Notes under the pieces: model-generated
Databases searched by the model: none
What the model saw: only the letters and a program-made list of their open reading frames with translations
Told to the model about the DNA's origin: nothing
Sequence record: MK373782.1
Origin: Escherichia phage vB_EcoM_KAW3E185
Direction: 5' to 3' (one strand)
DNA: 64,000 nt
Part shown: in pieces, positions 18,521 to 63,991 of the stretch
Layout: every line of letters starts with the position of its first letter
Position numbering within the stretch: position 1 is the first letter of the stretch
Program-made: the position numbers and the translations under genes

Positions 18521-18550
18521 ATAGTATCACACATCCGTGTGTTTGTAAAC
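18521..18550 (-). promoter_or_regulatory. Early promoter (GTTTAC / TACTAT)
   Basis: GTTTAC-18 nt-TACTAT on minus strand, immediately after the alt stop. Confidence 0.5.
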
Positions 18551-25397: not shown

Positions 25398-25438
25398 TTT
25401 ATTCTCCAGATGTTTAAGTTGTTTGTTGGTACAGGTCT

Positions 25439-25467
25439 ATAATAACATAACCTGTACCAAAGTAAAC
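25439..25467 (-). promoter_or_regulatory. Early promoter (GTTTAC-17-TATTAT)
   Basis: Consensus early promoter; −10 embedded in an 11-bp inverted repeat. Confidence 0.55.
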
Positions 25468-29406: not shown

Positions 29407-29434
29407 TTCTATTTCCTCATTTGTTGGTAGAGTT

Positions 29435-29464
29435 ATAGTATCACAACTCCACCATGTTGTAAAC
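29435..29464 (-). promoter_or_regulatory. Early promoter (GTTTAC-18-TACTAT)
   Basis: Consensus match. Confidence 0.5.
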
Positions 29465-29466
29465 CA

Positions 29467-29742
29467 TTAAATTGCTTTGCATTCAATTTTTTGTGTACCG
29501 AAATTGATATCACATTGGATAACTAAATCGCCGTCAAGATCAAATACCACGATGACGTGTGCAGACCCAGGGAGAAGAGTAATAGCAATAGAATCTACTT
29601 GGTCTGGGAGCAAAGCATTGAGTACATGAGTTACTTGAGCATGAACTCTGAGTTCGGCTGCGTTATCAAGCACTTCAAACATATTATTAGCAATAATCTG
29701 ACTGAAGACTACCTTTACAATTTCAGAATAAGTTGGGAACAT
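29467..29742 (-). CDS. Hypothetical protein (cd.x-like)
   Basis: 91-aa ORF. Confidence 0.4.
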   Translation of the reverse strand: MFPTYSEIVKVVFSQIIANNMFEVLDNAAELRVHAQVTHVLNALLPDQVDSIAITLLPGSAHVIVVFDLDGDLVIQCDINFGTQKIECKAI

Positions 29743-31532: not shown

Positions 31533-31560
31533 TTAGATTTCCTCAATTATCCATAGGAGC

Positions 31561-31590
31561 ATTATACTCTGCTCCCGAGAGTTTGTAAAC
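31561..31590 (-). promoter_or_regulatory. Early promoter (GTTTAC-18-TATAAT)
   Basis: Perfect −10 TATAAT embedded in palindrome ggagca…tgctcc; near-duplicate of the promoter at 61403-61432. Confidence 0.55.
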
Positions 31591-31814
31591 TATTTTACTA
31601 AAGATTCAATATACTCATGAAGAGCTTTAGTCGCTACTGCCCACTTATTCTGATATTCATTTTTCAGATTAGCACGAGACTGAACTAACAAGCGGTCATT
31701 AGTCGGAGGCAAAGATTCTAATCGTTGAATCTGGCGTCCATAAATCATAGCCGCCATTTCAGATTCATAGATAAGCCCTTTAATGTATTCATGCTGTTCT
31801 TTAGTCATTGGCAT
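31590..31814 (-). CDS. Hypothetical protein
   Basis: 74-aa ORF. Confidence 0.45.
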   Translation of the reverse strand: MPMTKEQHEYIKGLIYESEMAAMIYGRQIQRLESLPPTNDRLLVQSRANLKNEYQNKWAVATKALHEYIESLVK

Positions 31815-32966: not shown

Positions 32967-32996
32967 ATAGTAACACCTTCCTTGGTGTTTGTAAAC
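32967..32996 (-). promoter_or_regulatory. Early promoter (GTTTAC-18-TACTAT) for alc
   Basis: Consensus match overlapping the rnlA stop. Confidence 0.5.
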
Positions 32997-34149: not shown

Positions 34150-34178
34150 ATTGTACCACAATCCTTGTGGTGTGTAAA
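34150..34178 (-). promoter_or_regulatory. Early promoter (GTTTAC-17-TACAAT) for rnlA
   Basis: Consensus match. Confidence 0.5.
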
Positions 34179-34589
34179 CTACTTTTTCTTATGTTGGATA
34201 TTCCAAGGCGGGTTGAACTTTTTGATAAAAAGCGGTTCTTCAAGGTCCATTGTTGCGATGGTCATTGAACCAAGTTCGTTGGTGACTGAAAGGTCAAAAC
34301 ATTGGCGGGCCCAGAATTCAACCTTTTTGCCTTGCATTAAGGCATCCAAAATCATAAGTGATTTTCTTGAATCTGAAGTCTGGTCTTTTCGATTTATGGC
34401 TGTTCGATAATAGTTAATGCGTTTCTTTAAATTCTTGGTTTTACCAATATACACAAGTTCGTCATCTATAGCAATAGCATATATGACATTTTTCTTATTA
34501 GGGACATCAACTGTTTTAATTGTTGCATCTTCTAATAGCTCCAATTCTGTATATTTAATAAAGGAATATTCGGCGGCGATATCTTTCAT
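34179..34589 (-). CDS. denA: Endonuclease II
   Basis: 136 aa, near-identical to T4 EndoII (…VIYAIAIDDELVYIGKTKNLKKRINYYRTAINRKD…). Confidence 0.9.
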   Translation of the reverse strand: MKDIAAEYSFIKYTELELLEDATIKTVDVPNKKNVIYAIAIDDELVYIGKTKNLKKRINYYRTAINRKDQTSDSRKSLMILDALMQGKKVEFWARQCFDLSVTNELGSMTIATMDLEEPLFIKKFNPPWNIQHKKK

Positions 34590-42322: not shown

Positions 42323-42385
42323 TTTATTCTCCTCTTCACTTTTATTTTATAGGGCTATGTTATAGTAGCCCTATCTTGTTATAAA

Positions 42386-42778
42386 CTACTTTTTAAAAGT
42401 TTTTTGCAAAAGTTTGATGATTTCGTCGACGTTAGTTTCATCTACGATACAATGGATTTTTGTTACACCTAAAGCTATACCTTCGTTAGTAGGTTGAGGC
42501 TTTACTATATCTACCTCAGTAAAGTATTTGAACTCGTCAGGATAAATCTCAAAATAAGTTTCAATTTCACCACCGGCAGAACATACAGTACCATCTTCCA
42601 TAGTTACACTTACTACGTTTGACGTATCGCTATCATAATCAGGTTCCATTCCGTTTACAACAAAACTAGGCCCGTGGAGTTCAATCAATTTTAACATCTT
42701 AGCGTTATTGTGTGGTGCTTCTTGAACAAAGTCATCTTTAAATAAAGGGTTAATGATATAAGATTTTCCGATTTCCAT
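42386..42778 (-). CDS. Hypothetical protein (frd.3-like)
   Basis: 130-aa ORF with early promoter upstream. Confidence 0.45.
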   Translation of the reverse strand: MEIGKSYIINPLFKDDFVQEAPHNNAKMLKLIELHGPSFVVNGMEPDYDSDTSNVVSVTMEDGTVCSAGGEIETYFEIYPDEFKYFTEVDIVKPQPTNEGIALGVTKIHCIVDETNVDEIIKLLQKTFKK

Positions 42779-46174: not shown

Positions 46175-49100
46175 ATGGCCGACATCAAACGTAAGTTCAG
46201 AGCCGAAGACGGTCTGGACGCCGGTGGCGACAAGATTGTTAACGTAGCATTAGCCGACCGTACAGTAGGTACTGATGGCGTAAACGTTGACTTCCTGGTA
46301 CAAGAAAACACCGTTCAAGTATATGATTCTACGCGTGGATATAACAAAGGATTTGTTGTTCTTTATGACAACCGTTTATATCAAGCAATAAATGATATCG
46401 TGTCTCCTTCCGGGGCATTTAACCTTTTACAATGGCGTGCAGTTCGTACCGATGCACAATGGATAACTGTCGCTTCTGGGACTTATCAACTTTCTTCAGG
46501 TGAATCTATTTCGGTTAACACTGGTGCCGGCAATGATATGGTTTTCACGTTGCCGAATACGCCGGTTGATGGCGATACTGTTGTTTTGGCTGATATTGGC
46601 GGAAGAACCGGAACAGTTAAAGTACAGATTAACGCGTCTGTGCAGAGTATTTTAAACTTTAGAGGTGAACAAGTTCGTACAGTTTTAATGACGCGTCCGC
46701 GTTCACAACTATTGTTTGTGTTTAGTAATCGTTTGTGGCAGATGTATATTATCGATTATGGTAAAGAATCAATCACTGTTACACCTGCGACACCATATCA
46801 AGCACAAGCAAATGATTTTATCGTTCGTCGTTTTACTAGTGCAGCACCAATCAACATTACACTTCCACGTAATGCCAACAATGGTGATATAATCCACCTA
46901 GTTGATTTAGATAAATTAAACCCACTGTATCATACAATTGTTAAAACATTTGATGATACAACGTCTATTGGTGAAGTCGGGACTCATATTGCCGAAGGCA
47001 GAAATGACTCTGACGCGTTTTTTGTTTTTGATGCTGCGAATAGTTTATGGCGTATATGGGAAGGCGACCAGAAATCGCGTCTTCGTATTATCCGTGCGGA
47101 TTCAAACATTCGTCCAAATGAAGAAGTTCTTATTTTTGGCACAAATAACGCTACAGCCGGAACTATTAATCTTACGCTGCCTACCGGAATTTTGAGTGGT
47201 GACACTGTTAAAATTTCAATGAACTACATGCGTAAAGGCCAAACAGTAAAAATTAAAGCTGCCGAAGGTGATACAATTGCTTCTTCTGTTGCATTGCTTC
47301 AGTTCCCTAAACGTTCTGAATATCCACCTGATGCTCAATGGGTCTCTGTTACTGAACTAGAATTCAATGGCACTACTTCATATGTTCCTGTATTAGAATT
47401 AGCGTATATCGAAGACACCGTTGCTGGTACACGTTATTGGGTTGTGCAACAGAATGTCCCTACGGTAGAACGTGTTGATGCTGGATCTGATGCTACACGA
47501 GCTCGTTTAGGTGTTATTGCTCTTGCTACTCAAGCGCAAGCAAATGTTGATTTAGAGAATACTCCAGCTAAAGAAGTGGCTATTACTCCTGAAACGTTGG
47601 CAAATCGTACAGCAACTGAAGCTCGACGTGGTATCGCTAAAATTGCTACAACAGCACAAGTTAATCAGAATTCCACAGCATCATTTGTGGACGATACTAT
47701 TGTTACGCCTAAAAAACTAAATGAGCGTACAGCAACTGAAACTCGTCGCGGTCTTGCTGAAATTGCTACTCAGGCCGAAACCGATGCTGGTCTTGATGAC
47801 ACAACGATTATTACACCTAAGAAATTGCAGGCACGTCAGGGTTCTGAAACACTATCTGGTATAGTTAAATATGTATCAACTACTTCTGCTACTCCTGCTG
47901 AAACTCGTGGGGCCGCAGGCACTAACATTTATAATAAAACCGTAAATAATTTAACTATTTCTCCTAAAGCCCTTGACCAATATAAAGCAACTTATGCTCA
48001 ACAAGGTGCAGTAATTTTAGCTGTTGATAGTGAAGTAATTGCTGGTCAATCCCAAGCAGGTTATTCTCACGCTGTAGTAACTCCTGAAACACTACATAAG
48101 AAAACTTCTACTGATGGACGTATTGGTTTAATTGAAATTGCTACGCAAGCAGAAACTAATGCTGGGACTGATTATACACGTGCAGTAACGCCTAAGACGT
48201 TAAATGATAGGAGAGCGACGGAAGGATTATCCGGCATAGCCGAACTTGCTACGCAAGTCGAATTTGATACTGGAACTGATGATACTCGTATCTCGACTCC
48301 ACTGAAAATTAAAACTCATTTTGATTCTTCTGACCGTACCAGTGTTAATTCTGATTCCGGACTTATTGAAGAAGGAACCTTGTGGAACCATTATACTCTT
48401 GATATTTCTAAAGCAAATGAAACACAACGTGGTACACTTCGCGTAGCGACCCAGGCAGAATCTAATGCAGGAACTTTAGATGATGTTCTTATTACTCCTA
48501 AAAAGCTTTTAGGGACTAAGTCCACTGAAACGTCTGAAGGCGTAATTAAGGTTGCTACTCAGGCTGAAACTGTAACAGGAACTTCTGCTAATACTGCTGT
48601 ATCTCCTAAGAATTTAAAATGGATTGTCCAGAACGAACCAACATGGGCTGCTACTACAGCAATTCGCGGATTCGTTAAAACTTCATCCGGTTCTATTACA
48701 TTCGTTGGTAATGATACAGTTGGTTCAACACAACCTTTAGAATCATATGAAAAAAATAGCTATGCTATATCTCCATATGAATTAAACCGTGTACTTGCTA
48801 ACTATTTGCCATTGAAAGCTAAAGCCGTAGATAGTAATTTATTAGATGGCCTAGATTCATCTCAGTTCATTCGTAGGGATATTGCACAGACGGTTAATGG
48901 TTCACTAACCTTAACCCAACAAACGAATCTGAGTGCCCCTCTTGTATCATCTAGTACTGCTACGTTTGGTGGTTCAGTTTCGGCAAATAGTACATTAAGT
49001 ATTTCTAATACTGGAACGGCAACTCGTCTGATTTTTGAGAAAGGACCTCAAACTGGAACTAACCCAGCACAGACGATGACTATCAGAGTTTGGGGAAATC

Positions 49101-51922: not shown

Positions 51923-54900
51923 ATGGCTACATTAAAACAGATACAATTTAAAAGAAGCAAAGTGGCAGGAGTTAATCCTACTGCAGCACAATTAGCCGAA
52001 GGCGAATTAGCGATAAACTTAAAAGACCGAACTCTTTTTACTAAAGATGACCTCGGTAATATTATTAGCCTAGGCTTTGCTAAGGGCGGGGATATTAACG
52101 GTAATGTAACTCAAACTGGTGATTATTTACAAAACGGCGCGTATAATCTCAATGGAAATCAGTTTGTTTATGCAGGAAAATACATTGAATTTTTACCTAA
52201 AACCACTGGAAATGGCGCTTGGGCTAACCAACATTCGAATAAAGCCCCTATCTTTACAGATTTAAGTTCAACTACTTCTGTTTCAGAATACCATCCACTG
52301 ATTAAACAACGCTATAAAGATGGAACTTTTTCTGCCGGTACATTAGTAAACGAAGGTAGTTTTAAATTCCATTATATTGATGAAACCCGGACTTCAAAAT
52401 ACTGGACTTTTAATCGAAACGGTAATTTTCAAGTTGATTCCGGAAGTTTATTAGTATCTAATGGATATTTAGTTACTCAAAGTAATATTGAAACTAAAGC
52501 TGGTTCTTTAATTGGTCCTAAAGTTATTACCAAAAATATCAATGTGAGCACTAAATCTTGGGACACTAATATTGATACTGCATATGATTTAGTTTCATTA
52601 CCGACTTGGCAGTATACTCCAACCGAAACGGATTTGGATACTAATGGTATAAACTACCTTCGTAAATTCCGCGGACATGTTTCTTCTGCTATTTTCCATG
52701 AAGTTGCTGATGCTCGTTCAGGTAAACCACAGAATATTTCGTATTGGACGGGACGTAATGCCGAAGTTTATCAATGGTCTTATACCACAGATGGGCGTAT
52801 GTCTGTTGCTAATTCGATAGGTATAGGTCTTGCTGATGTTGGTGACCAAGGACGTTATCCATTGGTTTCGTTTGGTAAAGGTATTGCAATTGGTGACAAT
52901 GATACTGGTATTAAATGGGTTCGTGACGGCGTTATTGATTTGATTGCTAACGGGGTTTCGACCGGTACAATAAACAGTACTGGTATTAACAGCACTAAGA
53001 AATTGATGGTCGGTTATAGCCGCGATTCTGGTACTACTTGGGATTACCCAAATAACAACCAAGCAATGTTTACTGCGCGCACCGATGTTGATGGTAATAA
53101 TAACGGCGATGGACAGACTCATATCGGTTATAGCAGCAATGCCAAGATGTATCACTATTTCCGTGGTACAGGTCGTATGTCCGTTAGTATGGGCGATGGA
53201 CTTCTTGTTGAGCCCGGCATTTTAGATATTAAAACCGGTTCAAATTCGCTAAATTTGCGTGCTGATGGTACCATCGCTTCTGTTCAAACGTTAAAACTTA
53301 ATAACGGATTATATTTTAATGGTGATGGAACTAATGCTTCTCTAGTTTTTAAAGCAGCTTCAGGTATTGATGGCACTAAGCAAATAATGTGGGAAGGCGG
53401 TACTCGTGCAGGTCAGAACAAAAGTTATGTGACCGTGAAAGCATGGGGTAACTCATTTAATGCTACTGGTGATAAAGCTCGAGAAACCGTATTTGAGGTT
53501 TCTGATGGCCAAGGTTATTATTTCTATTCTCAACGCGTAGCTCCGACCGGTTCTGAAACTACAGGCCCTGTTGTAACCCAGTTCAATGGACAAGTTAATG
53601 CTAGAGGAAGTATTATTACTGACGGAAGTTTTAAAGTTAATGGATTAAGCACTTTAGTCGGTAATGTTACTATGTCTAATGGTTTGTTTGTCCAAGGTGG
53701 TTCTTCTATTACTGGACAGGTAAAAATTGGTGGAACGGCTGATGCATTAAGAATTTGGAATGCTGAATACGGTGCTATTTTCCGTCGTTCTGAAGATAAG
53801 CTTTATATTATTCCAACTCCAAAGAATGTTGGTGAATCAGGTGGTATTTCTAATTTACGTCCGTTCTATATTGCATTAAGTAACGGTAAAGTTTCTATGG
53901 ATCATGACGTAGATATAGGCGGCGGTAGATTTAAAGTAGAAGCGGCTGGAACTACGGCTGGTCAACGCATAACAGTAAATATGGCATCAGATGCTATTAG
54001 AATAAATGCCCCAACACAAGAATCTTCTAACTTCATCCAAGGACGTAAAGAAGATGTTCCGAAATGGTATTTAGGTATTGGCGATGGCGGCAACGTCGTT
54101 CGTATGCACAGTTACACCTACTCCCATGGTATTGCATTAAACTCTGATACGGTTGATATAGCTAAACCTCTTAGAATAGGTTCAACCCAGATTGGTACTG
54201 ATGGTAATATTACCGGTGGTTCTGGTAATTTTGCTAACTTGAATACAACAATAAATAACCTTAAGACAGATATTGTCTCAAGTTATCCTATTGGTGCTCC
54301 GATTCCTTGGCCTACTGATACACCTCCTGAAGGTTATGCCATAATGGAAGGTCAAACATTTGATGCTGACTTGTATCCTAAGTTAGCTGCAGTGTATCCT
54401 TCCGGCGCTCTGCCTGATATGCGTGGTCAAACTATCAAGGGTAAACCATCTGGGCGTGCTGTATTGAGTACAGAAGCAGACGGTGTTAAGTCACATAGCC
54501 ATAGTGCAAGTGCATCAAGCACAGATTTGGGTACTAAGACCACTTCTAGTTTTGATTACGGTAGCAAAACGACTTCAAGCTTTGATTATGGTACTAAGAC
54601 CAGTAATACCACCGGCAACCATAACCATACGGTAAGTGGAACTACCAGTTCAGCCGGTGCTCACCAACACGCGCGTTCAGGTCCTCAGGTCACTGCTGCA
54701 TGGGCAAACGATTTGTTTAGAGACGGGGTTACTACGATAGGTGCAAACTCATATGCTAAAATTAACTCAGGTATCACTGGTTCGACTTTAGCAACTAAGG
54801 TCGGTAAAACATCAAATGACGGTGCCCACACCCATAGTTGGTCAGGAACTACTAGCTCTACGGGTAACCATGCTCATACGGTAGGTATTGGTGCTCATAC

Positions 54901-55039
54901 CCATTCGGTAGGTATTGGTGCTCATTCTCATACTGTTGCAATTGGTTCCCATGGACATACAATAACTGTAAATGCCACAGGAAATACAGAAAACACAGTT
55001 AAAAACGTTGCTTTTAACTATATCGTTCGTTTAGCATAA
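51923..55039 (+). CDS. 37: Long tail fibre distal subunit gp37 (receptor-binding), T4-type
   Basis: 1038 aa; C-terminal His-box repeats (GNHNHT, GAHQHA, GAHTHS, GNHAHT, GAHSHT, GSHGHT) and T4-like C-terminus [11 protein letters not shown]. Confidence 0.95.
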
Positions 55040-60713: not shown

Positions 60714-60859
60714 TACTCGCCTTTTAACACGTTAAAAAGAGCTAAGACCGCTAAGGTGCCTTGTGATACGGCCTGTTGAAATACTGTTGTTTCGCCTGTA
60801 ACTAAAGTGTTAACGAATAAAAACGACCAACACAGCAATGCAATAATCCATGCTACCAT
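60713..60859 (-). CDS. Small membrane protein (48 aa), possibly ac-like
   Basis: Hand-translated MVAWIIALLCWSFLFVNTLVTGETTVFQQAVSQGTLAVLALFNVLKGE; sits where the small ac membrane protein is expected. Confidence 0.4.
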   Translation of the reverse strand: MVAWIIALLCWSFLFVNTLVTGETTVFQQAVSQGTLAVLALFNVLKGE

Positions 60860-60911
60860 TTTAATTACCTCAAAAATAAATTAAAGGCCCAACTTAATAG
60901 GCCCGTATAAA

Positions 60912-61358
60912 TTAGTAACTCTGCAGAATGAATTTGAAATTATCAGCCAGAAGACGGTTCATTTCAGTGAGTGTTTGATATTCTGATGTATGATTGCGAG
61001 TGAATGCCAGAGCCAATTGTCCTTTACCATAACCAGTGGTCAGTGGTTTCATGTTCTTAGCTGCAACAAAGATTACATCATATTCAATATTGTTAGTGCC
61101 CATGGTACGGGCTAGTTGTGAACGGCCTTGACGAATGTGAGAAAGAATTGCATCCAACCCTTGTTTAGAACGTTGACGTCCTACAAAGAATCGTGCTGCT
61201 ACTTGTCGCCAATCAGATGAACCTTTAACAAAGAAGTAAAAACCTTCACGAGAACGAAACTCTTTAGAAACTTCAGAACCGTATTCACCATTACGAACTA
61301 CTGCAACAACTTCACCGCCAACTGCCAGAAGGTCTTTACGAGTTAAATATTTGGACAT
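60912..61358 (-). CDS. ndd: Nucleoid disruption protein Ndd
   Basis: 148 aa; strong C-terminal identity to T4 Ndd (…[20 protein letters not shown]…[11 protein letters not shown]). Confidence 0.85.
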
Positions 61359-61402
61359 GCTAATTTCCTCAATTGATTAATGTTTTTGTAATCCATGAGA
61401 GC

Positions 61403-61432
61403 ATTATACTCTGCTCTCAAGAGTTTGTACAA
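61403..61432 (-). promoter_or_regulatory. Early promoter (TTGTAC-18-TATAAT) for ndd
   Basis: Near-duplicate of the promoter at 31561-31590, with palindrome gagagca…tgctctc around the −10. Confidence 0.5.
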
Positions 61433-61434
61433 TT

Positions 61435-61635
61435 TTATTCGGCCATATCAGAACGTTCAAAAAGCTCTTCAACAGTTAAACATTCAGTGTCATCTTCAAT
61501 AAAGAATCGAGTCCAACACGTTGGGGCGATACAGTTATGAGTTTGTCCGGCGATAGAAGCTACACGAATAAGCTGCTGACCGTTATTCAGAACAAATTTT
61601 TCACCAATTTCAACATCTTTAAAAAGCTTAGCCAT
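61435..61635 (-). CDS. Hypothetical protein (ndd.x-like)
   Basis: 66-aa ORF. Confidence 0.4.
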   Translation of the reverse strand: MAKLFKDVEIGEKFVLNNGQQLIRVASIAGQTHNCIAPTCWTRFFIEDDTECLTVEELFERSDMAE

Positions 61636-61663
61636 TTTGTGTTCCTCATATTTTGATAGGACT

Positions 61664-61693
61664 ACTATACCATAATCCTACCTTGATGTAAAC
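61664..61693 (-). promoter_or_regulatory. Early promoter (GTTTAC-18-TATAGT)
   Basis: Consensus match; near-duplicate of 62180-62209. Confidence 0.5.
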
Positions 61694-61889
61694 AATTAAA
61701 TTAAATTACATTAAAGTATGTTAAAGCCAACCATGTTCCAGTGAACGAACATGCGATGTAAAAACCGTATCACAAATTGTTCTTAGTACAATAAGAAGTG
61801 CATTTTTCATAAGTACCTCAATGCAATTGAAAATATTATACAAATCATAGGGATACTAAGCAACCATATTCCGATCCACATTTTAGAGC

Positions 61890-62153
61890 TCATAGCTCAA
61901 CTTCCGCGAGTTCCATATATCCTTTGTTGATAACCTCTTTAAGGTCTTTAGAAAGAATAACACTAAAATGGTCGTTCATATGTCCATTAACTAAACGAGT
62001 TATTTCGGCTTCAGATGACATATAAGGCACGTCTGAGTCCCAATGAGATAGACCCAAATGAGTATAAATCATCCCTTCGTCATCTGCAGTGTTGTACATT
62101 GAAACAAATTCGCCTGTTACTTTATGTTTTGCGTAGAAAAATTTAAATTTCAT
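61890..62153 (-). CDS. Hypothetical protein (ndd.x-like)
   Basis: 87-aa ORF. Confidence 0.45.
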   Translation of the reverse strand: MKFKFFYAKHKVTGEFVSMYNTADDEGMIYTHLGLSHWDSDVPYMSSEAEITRLVNGHMNDHFSVILSKDLKEVINKGYMELAEVEL

Positions 62154-62179
62154 GATGTTATCCTCTTTTAGATAGGACT

Positions 62180-62209
62180 ACTATATCATAGTCCTACTTA
62201 GTTGTAAAC
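62180..62209 (-). promoter_or_regulatory. Early promoter (GTTTAC-18-TATAGT)
   Basis: Consensus match; −10 inside the 8-bp palindrome taggacta…tagtccta. Confidence 0.5.
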
Positions 62210-62221
62210 ACTTTTATGAAA

Positions 62222-62779
62222 TTAAAGATGAAGATACCACCCGTTGTAGTTGCTCTTGCGGACGATTTTCTTTAGGTCTTCATGGTCTCCCACGAACTTT
62301 ATAGAATAAGAGAAGACGTCGGGTGAGGTTTCTTTGACATCTAATATAATAATGCAATCTGCGACTCGATGGTTCAAGAAGGGCCCTATATTGATTCCAT
62401 TACCACCCGGATAATCACCACCGTATCCTGTGGTAACCGAAATCCATTTCGAATCCATCTGATGGGTCTTGACTTCGACACGCAACCCGCAGTATTTAGG
62501 ATGAGCTAACACGTCCCATGCATACGTGTACGGGTCTTCTACGTCTTCATTACCTTTATTAACATATCCGTCTAGCCAATTTGCTACTACATACTCTGCA
62601 AAGACTGCAACCTTACAACGTCGAACAACGTCTTCTTTTATTTGACCTGGATCTTGTTTCAACGAGTACCGAGCAGTGTCAGCAATCTTCACCTTCATTT
62701 CACTAGTCAAAAACTCATTCGACAGGATAAATGTCGGAAGACTCTTCAGCCTCAACAGCCCCAAGTTCGTCTTTACCAT
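62222..62779 (-). CDS. denB: Endonuclease IV
   Basis: 185 aa from MVKTNLG (SD GAGG upstream), matching T4 DenB length; the ORF-track start is 21 codons further upstream. Confidence 0.7.
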   Translation of the reverse strand: MVKTNLGLLRLKSLPTFILSNEFLTSEMKVKIADTARYSLKQDPGQIKEDVVRRCKVAVFAEYVVANWLDGYVNKGNEDVEDPYTYAWDVLAHPKYCGLRVEVKTHQMDSKWISVTTGYGGDYPGGNGINIGPFLNHRVADCIIILDVKETSPDVFSYSIKFVGDHEDLKKIVRKSNYNGWYLHL

Positions 62780-63002
62780 AGATACCTCTGATGTGTAGTT
62801 CGCCAAAATAAATGCGGTCACCTTCTTCAAGATATTCAGCATCTACAGGTGGGATTTCAATAACAACTTCGTCGCATTCTAACCAGCCGTAGTGTGCATC
62901 GCCAGGATGTTTTACCAATTTAGCACAATAAACTGATTTACACTTATGATGACCACGAAGATTAGCAATTTTGGATTCTGATACGTCAAATGGATGAATC
63001 AT
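62715..63002 (-). CDS. Hypothetical protein (denB.1-like), overlapping denB start
   Basis: 95-aa ORF with plausible composition; overlaps denB by about 65 nt in another frame. Confidence 0.4.
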   Translation of the reverse strand: MIHPFDVSESKIANLRGHHKCKSVYCAKLVKHPGDAHYGWLECDEVVIEIPPVDAEYLEEGDRIYFGELHIRGIYGKDELGAVEAEESSDIYPVE

Positions 63003-63011
63003 AATTACCCC

Positions 63012-63038
63012 TAAAGAAAAAAGGGGACCGAAGTCCCC
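63012..63038 (-). terminator. CUUCGG tetraloop terminator after rIIB
   Basis: ggggac-cgaa-gtcccc; minus transcript has a UUCG loop followed by UUUUUUCUUU. Confidence 0.6.
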
Positions 63039-63043
63039 AATTA

Positions 63044-63991
63044 TTATTCTGCAAATAATTCAGTAACGTCTGAAATTACTTCATAACGACAAGTACGCAT
63101 CTTAGCATCACCATAGTCGACTGGGATGGATACAACATCACGTGGATGAACTTTAACCTTAACAACTTTATCTGAGCTTGAACCAAAGTGGCGAATATAA
63201 GATTTAGCACAAACATGGAGACCGCGAGAACAGGTTTGAGTATCATCGTCGTTAACTCGAGTACGAGGCATTGAAACAACTTTACCTGGGGAGTTATCAA
63301 ATGTACCACTATAGCAGTCTAAATAGTCCTTACGAACTACTTTCCACGCATAGAAATGACCATCTTCAGTGATTTCAATATCGTTTGCAACCAAGAAGTC
63401 GAATAAACGTTGTACAGCTTTTTCGCTTGGGTTTTCTAACAGGTTTTCAAGGAATGGCAGATAGAATTTAAAGTCTTCACCTTTTTCCATAGAATCAATA
63501 ATACGATTAACCAGGCCAGAACGAATCTCTATACCTTGATAAAATAAACTACCACCTTCAATAACAACATTACCGTCAACAAACTTACTAATAGCTTTCT
63601 TGATGTTAATAAGTTCGACAGCTTTACTAAGGTTTCCTGCGACCAGATTAGCTTTAATTTCTTCAAAATTTGCATGACTTGATGGAGTCGCATTGTATGC
63701 TACGCGTCCTTCAATAATTGAAATAAATTTAGATGACGCGTTCCATACGATTTCAGGACGATGGCCGCCGATAATAGGTTCATCATTTTCTGGAACTTCT
63801 TCGATTACATAAGAGGCATCGTTTGCTTCAGGGACAACGCCTTCTGCTTTAAAATTCTTAACAATCTTACGAAGAGTATCTGTTGAAATGTCGAAGTAAT
63901 CGGCAATTTCTTTACGAGTCCATTTGCCTGATTCAACCAGGCCGTAAGCTTCTAACTGTTCTTCTTGGGACAAGCATTTGATATTGTACAT
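63044..63991 (-). CDS. rIIB: rIIB
   Basis: 315 aa; extensive identity to T4 rIIB (MYNIKCL…DDDTQTCSRGLHVC…). Confidence 0.9.
   Translation of the reverse strand: MYNIKCLSQEEQLEAYGLVESGKWTRKEIADYFDISTDTLRKIVKNFKAEGVVPEANDASYVIEEVPENDEPIIGGHRPEIVWNASSKFISIIEGRVAYNATPSSHANFEEIKANLVAGNLSKAVELINIKKAISKFVDGNVVIEGGSLFYQGIEIRSGLVNRIIDSMEKGEDFKFYLPFLENLLENPSEKAVQRLFDFLVANDIEITEDGHFYAWKVVRKDYLDCYSGTFDNSPGKVVSMPRTRVNDDDTQTCSRGLHVCAKSYIRHFGSSSDKVVKVKVHPRDVVSIPVDYGDAKMRTCRYEVISDVTELFAE

Follow-up and report, generated by a model that had tools for sequence, protein, structure and literature searches.

The stretch of Escherichia phage vB_EcoM_KAW3E185 analysed here (MK373782.1; 64,000 nucleotides, referred to as the window) carries, in the interval between ndd and denB, two neighbouring copies of an early promoter cassette with an embedded hairpin, which we call cassettes A and B. 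RB69-like (Mosigvirus) coliphages match 60.9-63.0 kb of the window at 97-98% identity. All genes of this segment lie on the minus strand in the order gp52, ndd, ndd.1, two micro-ORFs (very short open reading frames), an 87-aa open reading frame (ORF87), denB and rIIB, a gene content that agrees with the label "ndd-denB interval" given in a first-pass annotation of the same DNA. The coordinates of the cassettes, of related promoters elsewhere in the window and of the surrounding genes are collected in Table 1.

Both promoter sequences named in that annotation were found at their positions, with the minus strand as the coding strand. Each cassette combines a -35 and a -10 hexamer over a spacer of 18 nt, a TGn directly before TATAGT, and GAGG (Shine-Dalgarno) plus ATG 26 and 28 nt past the -10 in the two cassettes, while the 22 nt 5' of the -35 are 82% and 95% A+T, respectively. 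The +1 positions were inferred from the consensus distance and from Nolan et al. 2006 (PMC1524935). A sigma-70 scan of 60800-63100 returned cassettes A and B and the ndd promoter as its top three sites, each with 10/12 matches to TTGACA/TATAAT. The two cassettes share 83% identity over 58 nt and 84% over -35 to +14; sequence identity and sigma-70 ranking thus bear out that the two sites are paralogous early promoters. The proposal that each drives one small ORF holds in so far as a small conserved ORF (ndd.1 and ORF87) stands behind either cassette, but cassette B appears to serve three ORFs of 87, 28 and 29 aa.

The perfect 8-bp inverted repeat that had been described around the -10 of cassette B is present, with an 8-nt loop, and was also recovered in a second scan. 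Its loop contains the first bases of the -10, and no U-tract follows the stem. In cassette A, a single C-to-T change relative to the stem of cassette B yields a G.U pair in RNA. Folded as sense RNA, cassette A reaches -13.7 kcal/mol (z -3.5) and cassette B -13.2/-13.5 kcal/mol (z -2.8). The hairpin of cassette A is weak as antisense RNA (-5.8) and as DNA (-2.2); the DNA folds of cassettes A and B (-2.2 and -5.1 kcal/mol; z -0.2 and -1.6), like their antisense RNA folds, do not differ from those of shuffled sequences.

Table 1 Promoter cassettes, related promoters and genes in and around the ndd-denB interval.
Feature	Coordinates	Strand	Description
Cassette B	62209..62151	-	GTTTACaactaagTAGGACTAtgaTATAGTAGTCCTAtctaaaagaggataacatcATG
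Cassette B -35, GTTTAC	62204..62209	-	17 nt 3' of the denB stop, which lies within an A/T-rich UP-like stretch (62210-62221)
Cassette B -10, TATAGT	62180..62185	-	TGa before it (extended -10); inferred +1 = A at ~62173
Cassette B hairpin	62172..62197	-	10 pairs in RNA; perfect 8-bp core TAGGACTA/TAGTCCTA; 6-8 nt loop
Cassette A	61693..61633	-	GTTTACatcaaggTAGGATTAtggTATAGTAGTCCTAtcaaaatatgaggaacacaaaATG
Cassette A -35, GTTTAC	61688..61693	-	early promoter hexamer
Cassette A -10, TATAGT	61664..61669	-	TGg before it; inferred +1 at ~61657
Cassette A hairpin	61655..61682	-	11 pairs, G.U included, in sense RNA
Module (one cassette repeat unit)	61664..62179		516 bp; absent in JM10 by sequence comparison
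ndd promoter, third cassette of the interval	61396..61432	-	TTGTAC, 18 nt, TATAAT; embedded 8-bp hairpin TGAGAGCA/TGCTCTCA
Paralogue of the ndd promoter	31549..31594	-	stem GGAGCA/TGCTCC; changes relative to the promoter at 61432 keep or improve pairing
Early promoter	25431..25467	-	embedded 11-bp hairpin TTGGTACAGGT/ACCTGTACCAA, -17.9 kcal/mol
Early promoter	29422..29479	-	embedded hairpin, 13 pairs, G.U included; -16.9 kcal/mol as sense and -8.1 as antisense RNA
frd.1 promoter	42344..42401	-	TAGGACTA-type family member downstream of frd.2; 9-bp stem TAGGGCTA(C)/..TAGCCCTA
ndd	60912-61358	-	Pfam Phage_T4_Ndd, E = 4e-89
ndd.1	61435..61635	-	66 aa; phrog_2183; 43% identity to T4 Ndd.1; downstream of cassette A
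Micro-ORF, 29 aa	61721..61810	-	phrog_18561; ATGA overlap with the 28-aa ORF; stop 27 nt 5' of the cassette A -35
Micro-ORF, 28 aa, hydrophobic	61807..61893	-	phrog_8851 ('outer membrane protein'); start overlaps the ORF87 stop (ATGA)
ORF87	61890..62153	-	87 aa; RB69ORF270c-like; phrog_2390; heads the module behind cassette B
denB	62222-62842	-	upstream neighbour of cassette B

This architecture corresponds to that of the promoter-early stem-loop (PeSL), which Arbiol et al. 2010 (PMC2839356) described in phi1/RB49 as an AT-rich region that holds the upstream stop codon, a strong early promoter, a stem-loop, and a Shine-Dalgarno sequence with a start codon; the published subclasses include stem-loops placed in the -35/-10 spacer or overlapping the -10. 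In phi1, one PeSL promoter yielded ~13,000 Miller units, and one stem-loop cut lacZ expression as strongly as rrnB T1 (PMC2839356). Neighbouring PeSLs were shown to recombine with each other, which removes ORFs, leaves a chimeric PeSL behind and yields mini-circles detected by inverse PCR (PMC2839356). PeSLs were later extended to PST/T4 and nt-1/KVP40, with an exchange of ndd.4/.5 between T4 and PST as an example (Comeau et al. 2014, PMC4122927). Cassettes A and B display all features of a PeSL that are accessible from sequence, i.e., the promoter, the stop in an AT-rich region, the stem-loop, the ORF with its Shine-Dalgarno sequence and ATG, repetition, and an insertion/deletion bounded by cassettes that leaves a chimera. 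We conclude with high confidence that they are tandem PeSLs, located in the hyperplastic region between ndd and denB of this RB69-like phage. The design with a dyad around the -10 is thus already known as a PeSL motif, and the RB69-type example is new.

The cassette-bounded deletion was found in JM10, one of 161 related records. Its interval (PP400777.1 57814-58998) measures 585 bp vs 1101 bp in the window, and the missing 516 bp equal the cassette-to-cassette spacing. The sole cassette of JM10 is of B-type up to TATAGTAGTCCTAT and continues with the cassette A-type leader of ndd.1, forming a B/A chimera whose crossover falls within the shared TATAGTAGTCCTAT (62185..62172 in cassette B, 61669..61656 in cassette A). 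Judged from this comparison, JM10 has lost the three-ORF module by a natural deletion between two PeSLs. A viable isolate can therefore do without ORF87 and the two micro-ORFs. The DNA homology of T4, T2 and RB27 to the window ends at 62203, at the -35 of cassette B.

The first-pass annotation had described the two promoters as a duplicated pair. They are paralogues, but not each other's closest relatives: the RB69 cassette at L009:7675 is nearer, with 86-89% identity to each of them, and the upstream flanks of A and B are unrelated. Cassettes A and B are neighbouring members of a dispersed family rather than a private duplication. A promoter finder applied to RB69 positions 1-100,000 located this cassette (..TAGGACTAtgtTATAGTAGTCCTATCAAAAC) six more times, along with a decayed copy, and in the window and RB69 1-100 kb together the TAGGACTA-type cassette has at least 9 copies, all within early-gene arrays. 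RB69 also carries other stem families, namely GAGAGCA/TGCTCTC, GGTCTAT/ATAGACC, GGATGAT/ATCATCC and GGTACAGGT/ACCTGTACC. The ndd promoter likewise has a stem family that differs from that of A and B; it belongs to a TATAAT cassette family (window 61391-61436 and 31549-31594; RB69 L009:22055 and L008:42501) with the stems GAGAGCA/TGCTCTC, GGAGCA/TGCTCC and GAGAGA/TCTCTC, in which the changes from copy to copy maintain or improve pairing. The orthologous ndd promoter of a JS98-like phage keeps the pairing with other bases (CGAGAAtC/GgTTCTCG), and a pair-preserving change separates the paralogous stems TAGGACTA/TAGTCCTA and TAGGGCTA/TAGCCCTA. For the two further promoters to which the same dyad had been attributed, the one at 25467 indeed carries an 11-bp stem (-17.9 kcal/mol), but the one at 18550 shows merely weak 5-bp stems (-5.6).

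In the cassette of the frd.1 promoter, the central 14 nt (CTACTATAACATAG) correspond exactly to the reverse complement of CTATGTTATAGTAG, the orthologous sequence in PhAPEC2, SCS57 and LF82-3. Its loop has been flipped between the inverted arms, with the stem kept. With the canonical TATAGT moved to the wrong strand and only TATAAC left, the promoter is probably crippled. To judge from bands of BLAST identity, the flip may be present in some relatives (27 records at 95-99%) and absent from others (101 records at 90-95%).

The first-pass annotation had called the dyad around the -10 a recurrent feature and had proposed to score it against shuffled controls. Promoters were chosen blind to dyads: a site qualified if it had no more than 2 mismatches to GTTTAC/TATAAT, A/T-rich DNA upstream, and a Shine-Dalgarno sequence with an ORF of at least 35 codons, which gave 15 promoters in the window. 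The minimum free energy (MFE) was measured on the spacer, the -10 and 14 further nt. The mean MFE of the 15 promoters is -8.57 kcal/mol, compared to -3.16 (standard deviation, sd, 0.51) in mononucleotide shuffles, -4.18 (sd 0.54) in column-preserving shuffles, where 0/500 reach the observed value, and -5.02 (sd 0.49) upon cross-pairing of spacers with the downstream parts of other promoters, where 0/7354 reach it. The observed mean thus exceeds the latter two controls by 7-8 sd, and the symmetry is above chance in all three. An MFE of -12 kcal/mol or lower was reached by 6 of the 15 promoters vs 1% of random genomic 38-mers.

To go beyond the window, the dyad-neutral pattern GTTTAC-N18-TANNNT-NNNN-CTATCAA was searched in IMG/VR, where it matched 120 DNA stretches from diverse T4-like phages with 188 unique promoters. 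Together with RB69 and the window, the set comprised 230 unique promoters in 167 clusters at 80% identity. Among the 167 cluster representatives, 30 fold at -10 kcal/mol or lower (2.5 expected from cross-pairing) and 25 at -12 or lower (1.1 expected). The arms differ across promoters (GATAGGGTA/TACCCTATC, GGGCTCAT/ATGAGCCC, GGTGTAAGAT/ATCTTACACC, GATAGTGCTA/TAGCACTATC) and the geometry is constant, with the 5' arm at ~-29 to -15, the loop at ~-14 to -9, the 3' arm at ~-8 to +7 and the dyad axis fixed between -12 and -11. We take these many unrelated arms in one geometry as covariation. In the unselected alignment, this register shows 48.0% pairing vs 45.7% in shuffles (1/500 as high) and 35-44% in slid controls, a covariation score of 0.193 vs 0.173 in shuffles (7/500 as high), and, per column over all promoters, 910 Watson-Crick cells vs 854 expected. 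This alignment-wide signal is modest, since the stem is confined to ~15-20% of the promoters and the three innermost pairs reproduce the promoter consensus; the MFE tail counts are the sensitive measure.

Whether a promoter carries an embedded hairpin depends on its distance to the upstream gene. Embedded hairpins were found in 28 of ~99 promoters with less than 35 nt between the end of the upstream ORF and the -35 (~28%) and in ~1 of 53 promoters with longer gaps (~2%; Fisher p ~2e-5 on cluster representatives). About half of the long-gap promoters are instead preceded by a stable upstream stem-loop, the strongest of which are classical terminators with a GC stem, a UUCG-type loop and a U-run. 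This complementary distribution fits a role of the embedded hairpin for the upstream cistron, at whose 3' side it may be an attenuator or a barrier to exonucleases or RNase E. If a stem can be placed only in the two stretches of the promoter that are free of constraint, the fixed axis would be explained as well.

The embedded stems are not canonical intrinsic terminators themselves, a reading that was rejected for the missing U-tract, and a terminator scan of the minus strand flagged neither cassette A nor cassette B. On the plus strand, the hairpin of cassette B (62173-62196) is followed by a T-rich stretch and looks terminator-like in a simple scan; this antisense signal is probably incidental, because cassette A gives none. 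A literature search for transcript 3'-end maps of T4 or RB69 infection found none.

In our judgement, the locus is probably best explained by tandem PeSL cassettes that combine an early promoter, a read-through hairpin and portable homology. Each cassette of ~75 bp comprises the upstream stop codon in its UP-like stretch, the early promoter, a hairpin of 10-11 bp, and the Shine-Dalgarno sequence with the next start codon. The 5' arm of the hairpin lies in the spacer, the TGn and the -10's first half form the loop, and the 3' arm extends from ~-8 to +7. The host sigma-70 polymerase is expected to start at an A ~7 nt past the -10, so that, as inferred from the consensus, the small ORFs would be expressed right after infection; promoter activity has been determined by experiment for phi1 PeSLs and T4 early promoters only. 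Of the 3' arm, just the final ~7 nt would be part of the cassette's own transcript. As this transcript starts inside the arm, the stem is possible only in read-through RNA or in DNA. A role at the RNA level is the more likely option, in which case the hairpin would form only in read-through RNA from upstream promoters. Located directly behind the upstream gene, it may serve as an attenuator or 3'-end barrier and replace the classical terminator, for which the tight junctions would leave no room. The near-identical ~45 bp of the cassettes furthermore provide portable homology for the very active T4-type recombination, by which two-cassette modules can be excised or inserted with one chimeric cassette left behind, as shown by the natural deletion of JM10.

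The evidence on the strand in which the hairpin acts is mixed. The 15 window promoters fold at -8.57 kcal/mol as sense RNA vs -6.59 as antisense RNA (Wilcoxon p = 0.04). Transitions in the 5' arm of the TAGGACTA family are of the G.U-type in 18 cases and of the A.C-type in 1, although these represent only 4 vs 1 distinct changes and are not independent. Several observations weigh against the proposed working. The strand-symmetric count over all stem families gives 15 G.U vs 14 A.C and hence no bias. A T-run (5 or more T among the 8 nt behind the stem) follows only 2 of 57 embedded hairpins, and the post-stem sequence is A-rich; with the U-tract lacking, termination is not predicted from the sequence, and the attenuator role is our inference. 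The sole experiment on a PeSL stem-loop used a G/C-rich phi1 element of another type than A and B. Lastly, the inner pairs -15/-8, -16/-7 and -17/-6 occur as often as expected from the self-complementary promoter consensus.

The same symmetry can be read without reference to RNA. The dyad might act in double-stranded or melted DNA, either as an operator for a dimeric phage protein that turns early promoters off or as a cruciform or hairpin that affects promoter opening. Its axis at -12/-11 coincides with the site where sigma-70 nucleates melting, the hairpin overlaps the -10 and the +1, i.e., the classic operator position, and the even overall count of G.U and A.C is what selection at the DNA level would produce. 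Furthermore, the mechanism of early-promoter shut-off is unknown and involves neither AsiA nor ModA according to two reviews (PMC2988021, PMC3014915). We nevertheless regard such DNA-level control as unlikely. The arms are wholly different within one genome (TAGGACTA, GAGAGCA, GGTACAGGT, GGATGAT), a diversity that does not fit any one sequence-specific protein; hairpins are missing from most early promoters; the dependence on spacing (28% at short vs 2% at long gaps) is not predicted by a function intrinsic to the promoter; the DNA hairpins are weak (-2.2 and -5.1 kcal/mol); and the fixed axis also results from a stem built in only two unconstrained stretches. One form of it, an operator for a sequence-specific dimeric repressor, was ruled out, as there is no common half-site and the arms are unrelated between stem families. 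That the hairpin is more than a stand-in for a terminator and a stretch of homology, and that a structure-specific phage or host factor reads the extruded or melted dyad at -12/-11, and thereby acts as a DNA switch aiding early-promoter shut-off in a subset of promoters, appears highly improbable to us.

An outside chance, small yet not negligible, goes to a palindrome that is selected or persists only as a DNA recombination device without any role in the transcript. The JM10 crossover inside the shared segment of -10 and 3' arm speaks for it, as does the loop inversion in the frd.1 cassette, which needs an arm-arm interaction in DNA; the PeSL authors speculated on a DNA-binding recombination helper, and the phage encodes gp46/47 and endonuclease VII. 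However, short homology suffices for T4-type recombination (Singer 1982, cited by the PeSL authors), so that a hairpin is not required, and the crossovers in RB49/phi1 map to several different places of the cassette (PMC2839356). A pure recombination device would also leave unexplained why so many stems are maintained by compensatory changes and why they are absent where a terminator is present. The dyad could, finally, lack any function and reflect recent duplication plus a by-product of a partly self-complementary consensus. That the inner pairs follow from column composition alone, that many copies are paralogous, and that the full unselected alignment shows only a small excess of pairing (48.0% vs 45.7%) would all be expected in this case. 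We regard it as strongly disfavoured, given that the window controls are exceeded by 7-8 sd, that the tail excess in the large set is more than 10-fold, that at least 6 unrelated arm sequences keep complementarity, and that orthologous promoters of different genera keep the stem with different bases.

Further observations concern the promoters and the surroundings of the locus. A PeSL subclass with short stems in the spacer only (CCACAA..TTGTGG, ACACC..GGTGT, CCAC..GTGG) occurs in the window at 34150-34179, 32967-32996, 18521-18550 and 2452-2481; spacer-only stems are also present in T4 (L007:1819-1850), in the JS98-like phage (L091) and in L121. At the promoter downstream of denB in T4, the JS98-like phage and another phage, the spacer stem is kept with swapped bases (CCAC/GTGG vs CACC/GGTG). 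The leader right after the -10 is strongly conserved (agaCCTATCAAaAc; e.g., 2452-2440, 42808-42795 and 25439-25425), being C-rich at -3 to -1 and then A/C-rich and G-poor, and it provides the outer half of most 3' arms. Scans for the exact cassette returned merely 6 and 13 stretches from IMG/VR and metagenomes, respectively, and protein-anchored IMG/VR scans nothing beyond close relatives. Classical intrinsic terminators on the minus strand, at 63023-63038 after rIIB (GGGGACTTCGGTCCCC followed by a T-run) and at 60885-60904 after ndd, flank the three-cassette array on both sides. A Pfam search with the two small ORFs gave no match, and the sole match of Rfam covariance models to the locus, SNORD69 within ndd.1 (E = 0.41), is by chance. 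The same interval of T4 encodes a comparable 28-aa hydrophobic peptide (MSSLWWCFVWLISIPVICLTFTFVMRLL). Direct-repeat families of 27-48 nt at 47453-48450 and 54869-54949 lie in long ORFs, presumed from their position to be tail-fibre genes, and are unrelated to the cassettes.

Gene shuffling in the variable regions of T4-type phages, which find wide use in phage therapy, has been proposed to be driven by PeSLs. The locus described here is a clean natural example from the RB69 group, with two cassettes, a 516-bp module of three ORFs, and a relative in which the module is gone and a chimera remains. To the published description of PeSLs our analysis adds the axis fixed at -12/-11, the near-restriction of stems to places where a terminator has no room, and the absence of a U-tract. 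These statistics sharpen the question of whether the stem acts as an RNA 3'-end barrier, as an attenuator or as a DNA structure. For annotation, such repeats should be regarded as regulatory, recombinogenic cassettes and not as assembly artefacts.

Compared to known systems, the embedded stems share with intrinsic terminators a stable RNA hairpin directly behind a gene, and upstream of early promoters the two are mutually exclusive. They differ in that the cassette stems are A/U-rich, ~10-11 bp long (up to ~15 bp elsewhere in the set), with loops of 6-8 nt and no U-tract. With T4 early promoters (PMC2988021, PMC1524935) the cassettes share the hexamers, the spacing of 17-18 nt, the TGn, the A-rich upstream region, the C-rich -3 to -1 and the CTATCAA leader; 57 such early promoters were predicted in RB69 by Nolan et al. 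2006 (PMC1524935). The descriptions of T4 early promoters (PMC2988021, PMC1524935) treat the spacer as unconstrained save for 'additional regions of consensus' and mention neither dyads nor hairpins. The T4 compilations may lack this feature because the same interval of T4 has only short spacer stems (CCAC..GTGG) or none.

As for PeSLs themselves, Mosigvirus (RB69-like) phages were not analysed in the published studies, and our literature search returned no paper naming both PeSLs and RB69. The published stems are of the type Gn...Cn, whereas those described here are A/T-rich (TAGGACTA), and the legend for PST places the stems just upstream of the promoter, whereas those of cassettes A and B lie inside it. 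Terminator activity and mini-circles were shown for phi1 PeSLs, while the RB69-type cassettes are described here from their sequence. What cassettes A and B have in common with the PeSLs of phi1/RB49 and PST/T4 is the order of elements, the repetition across the genome, the small ORFs flanked in hyperplastic regions and the deletion that leaves a chimeric cassette, and the ndd interval itself is among the published PST/T4 examples.

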